DNA of 64,000 nt from Candidatus Saccharimonadia bacterium. GTDB lineage: Bacteria; Patescibacteriota; Saccharimonadia; Saccharimonadales; JALRHH01. Made by a program: the position numbers and the translations under genes. Below are positions 6,931-61,421 of this stretch, piece by piece. Within the stretch, counting starts at the first letter, position 1. Every line of letters starts with the position of its first letter. The DNA lies in NCBI GenBank assembly GCA_023253175.1, contig JALRHH010000001.1:364020-428019 (forward strand). The letters are read 5' to 3'. Under the pieces are notes generated by a model, which saw nothing but the letters and a program-made list of their open reading frames with translations, was not told where the DNA came from and did not search any database.

Positions 6931-6990
6931 GGAGGGGTCGCCTAGTGGCCTATGGCGCACGCTTGGAAAGCGTGTTGGGTTTACGCCCTC
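6931..6990 (+). pseudogene. tRNA-Ser(GGA)-like 5' part with no T-stem 3' strand or acceptor 3' strand
   Basis: GGAGGGG-TC-GCCT-AGTGGCCTA-TGGC-G-CACGC-TTGGAAA-GCGTG, then variable-arm hairpin GGGT-TTAC-GCCC and CGAGG. The required 3' acceptor strand CCCCTCC is absent downstream. The anticodon stem-loop matches the intact tRNA-Ser at 7111 exactly. Confidence 0.6.
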
Positions 6991-7090
6991 GAGGGTGAAG
7001 ATCACCAGTGGTGATCTGCAAGGGAACCAACTCTTGAAAACTTGTTTTCAAAGATGTTGTTCCGGGGTCGCGGAACGTGACCGAATCCAG
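6986..7090 (+). repeat. Structured repeat, copy A (family also at 15222-15338, 46228-46340, 46353-46460)
   Basis: CCCTCGAGGGTGAAGATCACC-AGT-GGTGATCTGCAAGG, a long hairpin tipped by TGAAAACTTGTTTTCA (7035-7050), the GAA-loop hairpin GGTCGCG-GAA-CGTGACC, then GAATCC. Confidence 0.7.
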
Positions 7091-7110
7091 TAATATAAGG
7101 TTCACAGCGT

Positions 7111-7200
7111 GGAGAGGTGTCCGAGTGGTTGAAGGAGCACGCTTGGAAAGCGTGTGTGCAGGCAACTGTACCAGGAGTTCGAATCTCCTTCTCTCCGCCA
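7111..7200 (+). tRNA. tRNA-Ser (anticodon GGA), CCA encoded
   Basis: GGAGAGG acceptor, D-loop GAGTGGTTGAA, anticodon loop TTGGAAA, long variable arm, T-arm AGGAG-TTCGAAT-CTCCT, then TCTCTCC-G-CCA. Confidence 0.95.
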
Positions 7201-7437
7201 GAATAAAAACAGTCAGGCCATTTGTCTGGCTATTTTTATTCCCCACGAAGAAAAGATTCAAACCAGGCTCGATGGTACGGCCGGTGGTCGATCCGGACCG
7301 GATTGCCATGGCCTTGGGGTGATAGTCAGGAGAACCGCATCTTGACGTCATTTCTAGGTCGAATTGATTAACACGGAGTCCAGAATAGGGTTGACATACT
7401 TGATATTTCGGCGCAATGTGTATTTTAAGAGCTATAT

Positions 7438-15221: not shown

Positions 15222-15338
15222 TGGTACCGCGGGCCGGACTTGACCTACCTTCGGCAGGCCCGAAATTTCGCCATTGAAAACAAGTTTTCATCGGAAAGTT
15301 TCCTTGCAGATTGCCACAGGCAATCTTCACAGCACGAG
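15222..15338 (-). repeat. Structured repeat, copy B, ending in a tRNA-like T-loop/acceptor/CCA
   Basis: On the minus strand: GTGAAGATTGCC-TGT-GGCAATCTGCAAGG, a hairpin tipped by TGAAAACTTGTTTTCA (15275-15290), GGCCTGCC-GAA-GGTAGGTC, then AAGTCCGGCCCGCGGTACCA. Confidence 0.7.
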
Positions 15339-15408
15339 CTAATGCTCACTGGATTTTGACGTTTACGGCACAACCTTCGGGTTGTGCGCCCTGGCGTTTA
15401 AAAATATG

Positions 15409-15493
15409 TGGTGGGCGAGGAGGGACTTGAACCCTCAATCCGTAAGGAACGCGATTTTGAGTCGCGCGCGTATACCAATTCCGCCACTCGCCC
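15409..15493 (-). tRNA. tRNA-Leu (anticodon CAA), CCA encoded
   Basis: GGGCGAG-TG-GCGGAATTGGTATACGCG-CGCGA-CTCAAAA-TCGCG, variable arm TTCCTTACGGATT, T-arm GAGGG-TTCAAGT-CCCTC, then CTCGCCC-A-CCA. Confidence 0.95.
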
Positions 15494-15514
15494 ATCATAT
15501 ATTTTTAAAATACT

Positions 15515-15552
15515 GCCCTGGCGGTATTGTCTACCAATTCCACCACCGCGGC
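15515..15552 (-). pseudogene. tRNA-Leu-like 5' fragment (acceptor 5' strand plus D-arm)
   Basis: The minus strand reads GCCGCGGTGGTGGAATTGGTAGACAATACCGCCAGGGC. GTGGTGGAATTGGTAGAC matches the intact tRNA-Leu (GTGGCGGAATTGGTATAC) with 2 mismatches. GCCGCGG is complementary to CCGCGGT-A-CCA at 15222-15232. Confidence 0.55.
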
Positions 15553-15579: not shown

Positions 15580-15652
15580 ACTATAGAAGTTGAACGGAGG
15601 GAAATGAAGCTTGCTTCAATTTTCCGAGTACTACGACGTAAACGAAGTTATA
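15580..15652 (-). promoter_or_regulatory. Promoter/operator-like module, copy 1 (copy 2 at 61346-61421)
   Basis: On the minus strand, -35 is TTCATT (15603-15608), followed by 17 nt and -10 TATAGT (15580-15585). The near-palindrome GAAGCAAGCTTC overlaps -35. The module is about 85 percent identical to the copy upstream of ftsI. Confidence 0.5.
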
Positions 15653-37369: not shown

Positions 37370-37560
37370 CAATCTCACGGGGAATCAGCCTTTGGCTGGA
37401 AACTGCGTCGCTTACTCGATGCAAGCATCTGCGTGAGCTTGCTATCCGTCGTCGCTTCGCTCCTTTGGGATAATCTGCAGCCGTGCTCGAAGCAAGCTTC
37501 TGTGCGCGACTTTGATTATCGCATCCCTTCGGGGTTCCATTTCACTCTGTGAAATGACCA

Positions 37561-37595: not shown

Positions 37596-37670
37596 TGGTG
37601 ACCTCACGGGGAATCGAACCCCGATTGCCAGGATGAGAACCTGGTGTCCTAACCGTTAGACGATGAGGCC
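37596..37670 (-). tRNA. tRNA-Glu (anticodon CTC), CCA encoded
   Basis: GGCCTCA-TC-GTCT-AACGGTTA-GGAC-A-CCAGG-TTCTCAT-CCTGG-CAAT-CGGGG-TTCGATT-CCCCG-TGAGGTC-A-CCA. Confidence 0.95.
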
Positions 37671-45259: not shown

Positions 45260-46225
45260 ATGAAAAGTAAACAAAAACTTCAACGTAAAAAATTTTCACC
45301 CCTTAACATACGACGAAAAGGACTGTTTGCACTTTTACTTATTTCAATATTTGCAGGCATTGGGTCTTACCAAGTATGGAACTCAAGAGCAGCAACCGTT
45401 TACCGCTCTGAGGCGCTTTCGGCCGCCACCAGCGAAGGGTGCATGTTAGTTGGACGCAAATGGGTCAATGGCAACTGTAGTACTACGTGCATTCAAACAG
45501 GCGATAAGTTCATTGCAGGCACTAACTACGTTGTTGGTGGTGAAAAACTCGGATCAGGCTTCTGTCCCGGAGCAGTACAGCAAACCGTGACCAGAGACCA
45601 GTGTACCGGCATAGGAAGGCGCTGGGTATACAGCACTGGATGTGCCCGACAACTAAATCAGACGACCAACAAATTAAACTCGGTACACTGTATCGACTCA
45701 ACCGCAACCTACACGGTACCGTCGAACTCCTGTGTATGTCCAACAGGAACAGAGCGTGACGCCGGAAACGGAAAATGCGTACCCCCAGGAACCGCAAGCG
45801 TTGTATATACCGGCACTGATACAATCGTTCCGTCAGATGGTACCGTCAGTCTTTACAGTAGTACATTTGATCAAGCCGTACACAGCCGTTTGAATGTCTT
45901 TAGATCAAATGCAAATCTCAAACTTTTAAAGGAAAATGCCTGTCTAGCGAAATACGCCCGTGCCAGTGCAAAACGCATGGCGGAAAATAACAGCATGACT
46001 CATGCTACAAATCTACGAAACGCCATCAGTGAATGTGGAGCTAACAAGATAGGTGAAAATATTGCTGCCGGATTTACTGATCCAATACGGCTATGCGCAG
46101 CCTGGTATAACTCCGAAACGCACCGCCGAAACATGCTTGAGCCTTCATACGACTTACTCGCGGTAGCATCATACAAGAGCAGCACAGGACGCGTATACAC
46201 CGCAAGCTGGTATATGGCGAACTAA
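45260..46225 (+). CDS. Secreted Cys-rich protein with a C-terminal CAP (SCP/PR-1-like) domain
   Basis: TM/signal segment, a Cys-rich middle, then a CAP-like end (...MTHATNL...GENIAAG...WYNSETHRRNML...). Confidence 0.75.
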   Translation: MKSKQKLQRKKFSPLNIRRKGLFALLLISIFAGIGSYQVWNSRAATVYRSEALSAATSEGCMLVGRKWVNGNCSTTCIQTGDKFIAGTNYVVGGEKLGSGFCPGAVQQTVTRDQCTGIGRRWVYSTGCARQLNQTTNKLNSVHCIDSTATYTVPSNSCVCPTGTERDAGNGKCVPPGTASVVYTGTDTIVPSDGTVSLYSSTFDQAVHSRLNVFRSNANLKLLKENACLAKYARASAKRMAENNSMTHATNLRNAISECGANKIGENIAAGFTDPIRLCAAWYNSETHRRNMLEPSYDLLAVASYKSSTGRVYTASWYMAN

Positions 46226-46227
46226 AG

Positions 46228-46340
46228 TCCTCAGAGTATGAAGACTGCCAGTGGCTAACAGCAAGGTCATCTTCTCCTGAAAACTTGTTTTCATGGATGA
46301 AATGACGGGCTCGCCGAAGGTGAGTGGGCACTTCTCAGAC
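46228..46340 (+). repeat. Structured repeat, copy C1
   Basis: TCCTCAGAGTATGAAGACTGCC-AGT-GGCTAACAGCAAGG, a hairpin tipped by TGAAAACTTGTTTTCA (46278-46293), then GCTCGCC-GAA-GGTGAGT. Confidence 0.7.
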
Positions 46341-46352
46341 CAACTAAAAAGA

Positions 46353-46460
46353 GCCCTCAGAGGGTGAAAAATCCCTGTGAGATTTTGCAAGGAAATCTAC
46401 TCTTCAAAACTTGTTTTGAAAGATGTAGTTTTGAGGCCACAGAATGGGGCTGAGGCGCCG
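46353..46460 (+). repeat. Structured repeat, copy C2 (tandem to C1)
   Basis: GCCCTCAGAGGGTGAAAAATCCC-TGT-GAGATTTTGCAAGG, a hairpin tipped by TCAAAACTTGTTTTGA (46404-46419, compensatory G/C swap), then GCCACA-GAA-TGGGGC. Confidence 0.7.
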
Positions 46461-46473
46461 CTTTTACGAAGAC

Positions 46474-46863
46474 AAAAAAAGAGCCGTCAGAGGGGGTGGG
46501 CACCGCTGACAGCTCATTTCATGGCTCGAAACGTGTTCGAGCCGGGGAATCACCCTTCAACCCACCCGAGCGAAACATCATCGCCTAACGTCTAGTGGCG
46601 TGTGTCTGCAGAAGCAATCATTTAGACTCGCTTTGATCGGGAGCCGGGGGCGTTACCTCGTAACGTCCGGGGATCTGTTAAAGGGGTTAGTATGTTTTAG
46701 AACGTCTTGCAAACAAGTCACAAGAGCAAAGAGTAAGTGGAGGGTAACAACTTCTAATTGGCGCGCTCTAAAACACTCTAACGTTCATCTCCTAACAAGT
46801 AGGGGACGAATGCTATAAATGGGGGTTTAAAAGGTGCGAAAGCGTCATTACGAACGCTTACAG
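46474..46863 (-). ncRNA. Candidate ~390-nt non-coding transcript bounded by a promoter and a terminator; family unknown
   Basis: Near-consensus promoter at 46870-46898. Terminator GAGCTGTCAG...CTGACGGCTC followed by T7 at 46474-46515. No ORF longer than 20 codons. Contains hairpins such as 46644-46672. Confidence 0.5.
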
Positions 46864-46869
46864 GTTGTA

Positions 46870-46898
46870 ATATTAGCAAATTTGTTTCCTAATGTCAA
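46870..46898 (-). promoter_or_regulatory. Sigma-70-type promoter
   Basis: On the minus strand: TTGACA (46893-46898), 17 nt, then TAATAT (46870-46875). Confidence 0.6.
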
Positions 46899-46962
46899 TA
46901 CTTAAACACTATTTTGTGTTTTTAGCGAAAATGTAACTGTACTATATTTTACCACTAGCGTA

Positions 46963-61345: not shown

Positions 61346-61421
61346 AGTATACAAGCTGCACGGAGGAAAATGAAGCTTGCTTCTTTTTCCGAGTACTGCG
61401 CCGTAAACACGAAGTGTTATA
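61346..61421 (-). promoter_or_regulatory. Promoter/operator-like module, copy 2 (copy 1 at 15580-15652)
   Basis: On the minus strand: -35 TTCATT (61369-61374), 17 nt, -10 TATACT (61346-61351). GAAGCAAGCTTC overlaps -35. The ftsI ATG lies about 10 nt after -10. Confidence 0.5.

Follow-up and report, generated by a model that had tools for sequence, protein, structure and literature searches.

We describe here a structured, non-coding repeat (the core) found four times in a 64,000-nt stretch of a Saccharibacteria (TM7) chromosome, hereafter called the window. The core is a real, strongly supported and uncatalogued element that is consistently tied to tRNA genes: its copies share one fold, start at a GG^T junction and lie in tRNA-fragment contexts, and none of them is an intron of a complete gene. 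We regard the core as most likely a new variety of small non-coding element, either mobile or a tRNA-linked RNA. The reading that we favour, at a probability of roughly 0.45, is a structured mobile element that targets loops and now resides in the transcription units of tRNA genes.

Fold and distribution of the core

An earlier note on this DNA had reported four copies of the repeat, and a covariance model of 62 relatives, run with its filters off, recovered exactly these four in the window, at 6990-7103 (+), 15222-15335 (−), 46233-46346 (+) and 46359-46472 (+), with scores of 93-116 bits; the next-best match scored 13 bits. The four copies could be aligned over approximately 95 nt at approximately 70% identity, with TGAA.A, GCAAGG, AAAACTTGTTTT and the GAA loop as invariant blocks, and the 16-nt apex pattern T[GC]AAAACTTGTTTT[GC]A occurred four times compared with 0.2 times expected by chance. 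The refined limits are 6996-7082 (+; 115.7 bits, fold z = −3.5) for core A, 15329-15242 (−; 106 bits) for core B, 46239-46325 (+; 92.6 bits) for core C1 and 46365-46451 (+; 102.2 bits) for core C2, which lies in tandem with C1. The string CCTC(A)GAG(G)G, which had been taken as the start of each copy, falls outside the element and belongs to the host flank, as part of a T-stem or hairpin stem.

The fold was analysed in an alignment (A2) of 62 distinct copies using RNAalifold and explicit pair counting. The core is approximately 87 nt long and forms three helices on the tRNA-sense strand: P2 (8-9 bp with a 3-nt loop), P3 (approximately 17 pairs with the apex UGAAAAC-UU-GUUUUCA and a CUUG-type loop) and P4 (6-8 bp, usually with a GAA loop). 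The junction bases are invariant, with U-GAARA before P2, GCAAGG before P3 and GG before P4, and approximately 60% of the copies begin with UGAAAA. All of the compensatory changes listed in the earlier note proved to be real and to recur across the family. The apex pair was G-C in 46 copies and C-G in 12, and the helix below it had U-A in 34 and A-U in 26; a P2 pair was A-U in 20, C-G in 17 and U-A in 16; and two P4 pairs were divided between C-G (33) and G-C (26) and between C-G and U-A (29 each). Standard pairs filled 96.0% of the 1,984 cells, compared with 81.2% in column shuffles and 31-48% when the partners were slid, and double-sided changes were found at 20 of the 32 pairs (280 cells compared with 80 in the shuffles); none of 500 shuffles reached the observed pairing values. 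This strong covariation establishes, as had been proposed, that the fold is conserved and not just the sequence. G·U prevailed at two P4 pairs, in 47/62 and 31/62 copies, and A·C was rare, indicating that the fold belongs to the sense strand of the neighbouring tRNA genes. A closing helix formed by the host stem (P1) had at least 4 bp in 45 of the 62 copies, compared with 38.7 for re-paired flanks.

To follow the family beyond the window, one genome per species (185,579 species) was scanned with an exact pattern. This gave 67 loci, approximately 60 of which were from Candidatus Saccharibacteria/Saccharimonadales or unclassified Patescibacteria metagenome-assembled genomes (MAGs). Seven loci in other phyla (Paenibacillus, Treponema, Clostridia, Opitutales, a gammaproteobacterial MAG, a Chloroflexi MAG and Bacteroidales) were chance matches that the covariance model rejected, with a best score of 14 bits, and every match that it confirmed was from Saccharimonadales or Patescibacteria, the only groups in which the family is so far confirmed. 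This specificity, like the placement in tRNA-derived loops described below, had been overlooked in the earlier note. The suggestion there of a MITE-like (miniature inverted-repeat transposable element) or REP-like (repetitive extragenic palindrome) repeat, or of a small structured RNA without a known family, was supported, with Rfam 15 empty even at E≤10. At the gathering score Rfam 15 returned only three tRNAs in the window; in the region 46100-46700, at E≤10, it gave only a spurious 14-bit match to PK-BYV, and in sixteen related loci only tRNA and RNase P. The element is not described in the literature searched, in which the nearest paper deals with group I introns in Patescibacteria tRNAs (PMC13011429).

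Several other identities were considered and rejected. The start UGAAGA resembles the CUGANGA of known ribozymes, yet the other core elements of the hammerhead, hairpin and pistol ribozymes are absent and Rfam is empty. A phage origin was rejected because the IMG/VR viral contigs lacked the exact motif, the 3-kb stretch with C1 and C2 had no near match in the phage collection and the neighbouring genes are housekeeping genes. The P3 apex, TCTTGAAAAC-TT-GTTTTCAAGA, may resemble parS and the half-sites of Hin hix, but with a different spacing and orientation.

Placement of the core in tRNA-derived loops

Nearly all cores were found immediately after GG(G)T, within a loop of tRNA-derived sequence or of a hairpin. 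Among the 62 copies, the base before GAARA was invariably T, and the preceding base was G in at least 90%. Most copies interrupt the T-loop (54/55), and the other site types are the anticodon loop of tRNA-Pro(GGG) and tRNA-Leu(GAG), the D-loop and the loop of a non-tRNA hairpin. The element is associated with at least 14 tRNA species, and the tRNA pieces that it interrupts partly duplicate an intact same-strand tRNA gene 20-100 nt away.

Three context classes were assigned over 75 covariance-model hits. In class 1 (~27/75) a same-strand tRNA lies 72-103 nt upstream, and the 3′ flank of the core corresponds to the tail of that tRNA. The order is intact tRNA, terminator hairpin, a segment X, short hairpin, GGGG-T (T-stem 5′ strand), core, (T)CGAATCC, T-stem 3′ strand, acceptor 3′ strand, NCCA and a second terminator, where X is a degenerate reverse complement of the tRNA's own T-arm and acceptor 3′ strand. 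In class 2 (~22/75) the same-strand tRNA lies downstream and the 5′ flank corresponds to tRNA positions 1-37 or 1-53, so that a tRNA 5′ part is followed by the core, the next 8-10 nt of the tRNA, a spacer and an intact tRNA of the same species. These 8-10 nt are often trailed by their own inverted copy, and the 5′ part mostly ends at ~53, with ~37 for tRNA-Pro(GGG) and tRNA-Leu(GAG) and ~20 for some Ser and Gln cases. In class 3 the core occupies the loop of a non-tRNA hairpin, as in window copies C1 and C2 and the tandem array of locus L021. Inverted tRNA copies are frequent, and are always of the uninterrupted segment with the core absent. One pseudo-tRNA-Gln contains two cores, in its D-loop and T-loop, one locus is a tandem array of pseudo-tRNA-Arg plus core units, and the sole reversed copy follows CTGGG^T on the opposite strand.

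The ends of the core, TGAARA... and ...GGTRRG(TC), are not inverted repeats, and its flanks are contiguous tRNA sequence with no target-site duplication. The hallmarks of classical MITEs, terminal inverted repeats and a target-site duplication, are therefore missing.

We also considered a T-loop intron, as suggested by the arrangement GAGGG-T[core]CGAATCCCTC-TCTCTCC-G-CCA. This was rejected, since excision fails and the upstream part is an inverted copy of the tRNA 3′ end and not a 5′ half. In silico excision of the core from 74 copies, over 54,441 boundary combinations, gave no credible junction-spanning tRNA. ARAGORN made junction-spanning predictions after excision for 4/74 copies, all of class 2 and without an acceptor 3′ strand, and the one of these four that was inspected had a poor fold. 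As excision never rebuilds a tRNA, the core is not a simple intron.

Copy A, in which TGAAGA, P2, GCAAGG, P3 (apex TGAAAACTTGTTTTCA), GG and P4 (GAA loop) follow one another, has a class 2 context. The core is inserted directly after GAGGG of a truncated tRNA-Ser(GGA)-like 5′ part (6931-6995, +), which holds the acceptor 5′ strand, the D, anticodon and variable arms and the T-stem 5′ strand GAGGG; this flank can be aligned to tRNA-Ser positions 1-45 and forms a 50-nt direct repeat with its parent, the intact tRNA-Ser(GGA) at 7111-7200 (+; terminator at 7211-7231). By direct reading, the core is followed by GAATCC (7083-7088, +), a remnant of the T-loop and T-stem 3′ strand, after which the acceptor 3′ strand is missing. 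ARAGORN found no tRNA at the truncated site, with the core either present or removed. The same type of locus, a truncated tRNA-Ser with a core, recurs in L023 and L069.

Copy B resembles a class 1 unit. An intact tRNA-Leu(CAA) (15409-15493, −) lies 79 nt upstream of it on the same strand, and no terminator-like site was found between the two. The core is followed by a tRNA 3′ tail at 15222-15241 (−), AAGTCCGGC CCGCGGT A CCA, comprising the remainder of the T-loop, the T-stem and acceptor 3′ strands and CCA, and then directly by a terminator-like hairpin (15216-15191, −). The tail, AAGTCCGGCCCGCGGTACCA, derives from a tRNA-Leu-like gene other than the adjacent tRNA-Leu(CAA), to which the flank has no match. 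An orphan tRNA-Leu 5′ fragment, GCCGCGGTGGTGGAATTGGTAGACA (acceptor 5′ strand and D arm), was read upstream of tRNA-Leu(CAA), at 15528-15552 (−), and its acceptor strand appears to be complementary to the tail of core B (GCCGCGG/CCGCGGT).

Copies C1 and C2 are located at GAGGG^TGGGCAC of duplicated copies of a hairpin, the uninterrupted form of which, GAGCCGTCAG-AGGGGGTGGGCACCG-CTGACAGCTC, was read directly at 46481-46515 (+). The flanks of C2, CCTCAG...CTGAGG, are the stem of this host hairpin; C1, in which P2 is partly broken, has the lowest score of the window copies and starts 14 nt beyond the stop codon of a CAP-domain gene (45260-46225). A homologous tandem array with the hairpin, ending in ...CCTCCAGAGGGGGTGGGCACCGCTGGAGG, is present in L021. 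Approximately 500 nt of non-coding DNA separate C2 from dprA (46452-46962, +), with several strong hairpins that include the one at 46481-46515 and GGCTCGAAACGTGTTCGAGCC at ~46523-46543. The part of this gap that was searched (within 46100-46700) had no Rfam match, and the gap, long for a ~1-Mb genome, may contain another non-coding RNA.

The genes of the window are housekeeping genes (der, pth, the CAP-domain protein gene, dprA, topA, a two-component system and ABC transporters), a metagenomic contig of 644 kb carries the same genes, and the cores in the window are situated within tRNA or gene transcription units. At L011, L056 and other loci, extended −10-like boxes (TGTTAAAAT, TGGTATAAAAT) were seen approximately 7-10 nt before position 1 of the tRNA or its pseudo-copy; judged from the sequence, such close boxes suggest that tRNA transcripts of these bacteria may be nearly leaderless.

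Other inserts and rearrangements at tRNA genes

The class 1 architecture is not confined to the core. Among 74 tRNA genes in fetched loci with enough downstream sequence, 26 had a duplicate of the 3′ tail approximately 160 nt downstream, and this module was present in 4/7 cases of tRNA-His. In eight of the 26 modules the filling was not matched by the core-motif pattern, and six of these eight were read: one was a divergent core, one a reversed core and four were other sequences. A second family, of GAAGC-TT-GCTTC hairpins, fills the equivalent module of the window (37372-37560, −) downstream of tRNA-Glu(CTC) (37596-37670), where the tRNA is followed by a terminator, a partial inverted copy of the tail, the insert and a copy of the tRNA tail. 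The insert contains two hairpins of the type CACAGAAGCTTGCTTCGAGCA / CACGCAGATGCTTGCATCGAG and ends in GATTCCCCGTGAGAT (37386-37372, −), the copy of the tRNA-Glu tail; loci L025, L038 and L056 contain related motifs.

A variant of the core was seen at L016:4637-4722, L053:1070-1200 and L028:3909-4010. It starts with GGT|GAGAA-P2-TYGCAAGG and shares the end ...GGTGAC with the core, and its interior, CCGGAAAC...GAGTTGAGG, has a different P3 and P4. It is inserted in pseudo-tRNAs upstream of intact genes, in their T- or D-loops; the flanks that were read belong to pseudo-tRNAs for Arg and Phe. In keeping the junction while the peripheral helices vary, it recalls families of ribozymes or riboswitches. 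A cassette-like layout was observed at L017:2310-3545 and L046:776-2060, in which a unit of approximately 230-260 nt (tRNA tail end, terminator, inverted copy, hairpin, core and tail) is directly repeated around a segment of approximately 0.9 kb; this segment has one small open reading frame (ORF; 205 aa and 245 aa respectively), each with a hydrophobic start by inspection.

Further repeats surround tRNA-Leu(CAA) next to core B (15388-15523, −). A 23-nt inverted repeat prolongs the acceptor stem into the leader and trailer (TTTAAAAATAT.TG...), and outside it lies a 9-nt direct repeat, CGCCAGGGC, at 15523-15515 and 15396-15388, so that the tRNA gene looks like a unit inserted in a disrupted tRNA-Leu gene whose fragments are found at 15552-15528 (5′) and 15241-15222 (3′). 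In L078, an ERZ27267747 contig assembled from a different sample of this population, core B and the tRNA-Leu′ tail are replaced by a complete tRNA-Asn(GTT) that ends in GCCA. Relative to window position ~15221, the downstream gene and terminator are the same and the upstream DNA is unrelated; as the tRNA-Asn is joined where the window has ...GGTACCA, the breakpoint lies exactly at the CCA end of a tRNA. This difference is either a strain-level rearrangement or a chimeric assembly. A pair of direct repeats of approximately 60 nt (15582-15643 and 61348-61408, +), 85-92% identical and containing GAAGCTTGCTTC, has one copy directly beside the tRNA-Leu locus and may be related to the GAAGC-TT-GCTTC hairpin family.

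Origin of the core

The same core after one motif in four types of loop argues that the core is, or was, mobile, and so do the doubly occupied pseudo-tRNA, the tandem arrays, the reversed copy, the uninterrupted sister hairpin beside C2 and the occupation of some, but not all, tRNA-His genes. We propose that a single-stranded fold, of DNA or RNA, would be needed for insertion at an exposed GG^T(U) without target-site duplication. Only one of the two strands would receive the insertion. Repair of the replication intermediate, broken or stalled, by fold-back or template switching would then regenerate the intact tRNA and leave direct-inverted-direct tRNA segments. As tRNA genes are essential, insertions would survive only where an intact tRNA was regenerated or retained, and the resident copies would then be transcribed together with the tRNA genes. 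RNA is somewhat favoured as the intermediate, given that G·U pairs are conserved, that the loops are of CUUG and GAA type, that the cores lie in sense orientation within transcription units and that they are conserved in place; the single-stranded DNA alternative has its precedent in the 'peel-and-paste' elements of the IS200/IS605 family and their gene-less derivatives, palindrome-associated transposable elements (PATEs) (PMC10055086).

A number of results weigh against this proposal. Copies within a genome were 0.79 identical compared with 0.75 between genomes, and the nearest neighbours were usually in other genomes and other tRNA contexts; identity within genomes is thus hardly higher than between them and gives no sign of recent bursts. 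No clean pair of filled and empty orthologous sites was obtained. Clustering of 621 ORFs around the copies revealed housekeeping families only, with no recurrent transposase, reverse transcriptase or recombinase near the copies, and none was sought genome-wide. The junctions lose 1-2 nt instead of being exact, and the repair step is a conjecture. In most class 1 loci a strong terminator lies between the tRNA and the core, which makes the transcription of most class 1 cores uncertain. Moreover, unrelated inserts of approximately 100 nt share the architecture of tRNA, terminator, inverted copy, insert and tail, and the architecture may be primary, with the core only one of its tenants.

A possible, though doubtful, alternative is a never-mobile host small RNA or cis-acting module on a tRNA-derived scaffold (T-stem, acceptor 3′ strand and CCA), expressed from the transcription units of tRNA genes, on which the tRNA-maturation machinery would confer defined, stable ends. 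Conservation in place bears on this alternative and equally on the mobile element that we favour. At an orthologous tRNA-Pro locus all core helices were kept in three species, and between two of them (L009 and L018) the core was 84% identical, compared with 77% for RNase P RNA, 78% for the real tRNA-Pro and 66-72% for proteins, whereas the pseudo-tRNA part had decayed and the spacer could not be aligned. Likewise, the class 1 tail was 91% identical to the last 19 nt of the adjacent tRNA (19/19 in 17/26 loci), compared with approximately 52% by the same measure for the inverted copy X. The core and the adjoining tRNA bases are thus conserved while the other scars decay, suggesting that the core RNA probably matters in place too. 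Copies as divergent within a genome as paralogous genes, the RNA-type fold with its majority G·U pairs and its loops, the other insert families on the same scaffold and the position of core B between tRNA-Leu and a terminator, with its CCA tail, would also suit a host RNA. Such a role leaves unexplained, however, why one core, invariably found after GG^T, should occupy three different tRNA loops (D, anticodon and T) as well as a non-tRNA hairpin, why one pseudo-tRNA has two cores and why one copy is reversed; class 2 lacks any CCA tail, the helix closed by the inverted copy and the tail is lost in older loci, and the terminators ahead of most class 1 cores count against this role as well. We see a parallel in the tyrT operon of E. 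coli, whose RtT repeats end in the 3′ sequence of tRNA-Tyr. RtT is a structured unit of approximately 170 nt just 3′ of a tRNA gene, in tandem and with no known function, and class 1 resembles it in the layout of tRNA, terminator, insert and tRNA tail with CCA. A unit 3′ of a tRNA and ending in that tRNA's 3′ sequence was found in ~27/75 copies (class 1), and such a tail is lacking in the class 2 and class 3 copies, including A, C1 and C2 of the window. RtT differs also in being bound to one operon, whereas the core accompanies at least 14 tRNA species, has no sequence or Rfam match to RtT, and occurs upstream of tRNAs, fused to tRNA 5′ parts, in D- and anticodon loops and in a non-tRNA hairpin. 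A mobile origin at the level of DNA, as a protein-less derivative of an IS200/IS605- or REP/RAYT-type single-strand transposon (PATE-like), seems to us unlikely. P2 and P4 would then be the left and right end hairpins and GGT the transposon-adjacent motif, with an HUH Y1 transposase acting in trans. According to the literature, IS200/IS605 elements have transposon-adjacent motifs and, on one strand, subterminal palindromes, and gene-less PATEs exist in the family (PMC10055086); in all four site types the core has a conserved motif directly 5′ of its left end and no target duplication. Its oriented insertion 3′ of a short motif, its targets, which are loops exposed in single-stranded DNA, the hairpins near both ends on the same strand, with an inner P2 and P4 that are alike (CTGCC-NNN-GGNAG) in many copies, and the reversed copy after the motif on the other strand all fit. 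The core shares with PATEs and with REPs and their inverted doublets (REPINs) a short, gene-less, multi-copy form, covarying hairpins, strand-specific insertion by motif without target duplication and, presumably, action as a single strand (PMC10055086). It differs from them in its end geometry, in a central hairpin and invariant junctions without counterpart, in its old, divergent copies and in targeting the loops of tRNA genes. The hairpins abut the ends of the core (0-3 nt), whereas the cleavage sites of IS608 lie approximately 19 and 10 nt from its hairpins. No conserved 3′-end motif was found, P3, the largest and most conserved part, has no counterpart in the IS200/IS605 family, and the conservation in place and conserved G·U pairs fit RNA better. 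A tblastn search of the window and approximately 0.55 Mb of loci with an approximate IS200 TnpA query, a weak test, gave nothing below E = 0.3. REPs and REPINs, with a 20-40-nt palindrome preceded by GTAG, inverted doublets and hundreds of near-identical copies, are set apart from a unit of approximately 87 nt with three different hairpins and four copies in 64 kb that are approximately 70% identical.

Could the tRNA tail be a guide? In a guide-RNA-like scaffold resembling the omega-RNA of TnpB, the core would serve as scaffold, with GGT as the adjacent motif and the tRNA tail of approximately 20 nt as a guide that targets the uninterrupted T-loop of the tRNA gene for homing or RNA-guided regulation. 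TnpB systems have their scaffold inside the ORF or downstream of it, and the guide portion of their RNA is located past the transposon boundary (PMC10055086). The layout of a scaffold followed by a 20-22-nt flank identical to a tRNA gene, the conserved motif 5′ of the element and the rearrangement scars at tRNA genes, including the strain breakpoint exactly at a tRNA CCA end, agree with this idea, which we nevertheless consider very unlikely: no TnpB or IscB gene adjoins any of ~80 copies, the class 2 3′ flank of 8-10 nt is too short, cutting an essential tRNA gene would be suicidal and the core is small for such a scaffold. Most improbable of all is either a true tRNA intron spliced from functional precursors or an att/attC-like recombination site of integrative cassettes. 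The T-loop and anticodon-loop positions recall those of tRNA introns, and group I introns are abundant in the tRNA genes of Patescibacteria (PMC13011429); with these the core shares the phylum, the host genes and insertion in a tRNA loop after U/T. Those introns are >200 nt, detectable by Rfam, self-splicing and placed in the anticodon loop of complete genes (PMC13011429), whereas the core, at approximately 87 nt far below group I size, has three hairpins, no group I core (P3-P9), no match to Intron_gpI and only partial tRNA copies around it; the interrupted genes lack their other half, and the excision test failed. As for recombination sites, L017 and L046 have cassette-like direct repeats around a one-ORF segment, and the succession of a complete tRNA, a foreign stretch and a directly repeated tRNA 3′ part that begins in the T-loop recalls the attL and attR sites of tRNA genes. 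However, no integrase recurs nearby, the cassette-like duplication is confined to two loci and covarying hairpins are unexpected in double-stranded att arms; the 'island' is only approximately 160 nt, the core lies at the would-be crossover point, and there are 5′-part duplications and inverted copies. The integron attC boxes R′′ (RYYYAAC) and R′ (GTTRRRY) are not visible in the alignment, there is no integrase cluster and ORF-flanking repeats occur in the two loci only.

An unlikely but far-reaching reading is a new class of small catalytic or self-inserting RNA, or, as a variant, a guide-like scaffold with the tRNA tail as its guide. An RNA of approximately 90 nt with cloverleaf topology would cleave or ligate at GG^U and in this way move, at the level of RNA, into the exposed T-, D- and anticodon loops of tRNAs, and the genomic copies would be its retro-copied or recombined fossils. 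If true, this would be a new mechanism joining tRNAs, mobile RNA and genome rearrangement in ultrasmall bacteria.

Repeats are unexpected in the streamlined ~1-Mb genomes of Saccharibacteria, yet four structured copies are present in these 64 kb, and the covariance model is ready for the annotation of such genomes. Should the core function as an RNA in its own right, it would be a new family among the few tRNA-tailed RNAs, and a candidate ribozyme or protein-binding fold. If it is mobile, it would be a selfish element that colonises essential tRNA genes and is kept only where an intact copy is regenerated, and it would account for many partial tRNA copies and possibly for confusion in the annotation of tRNAs.

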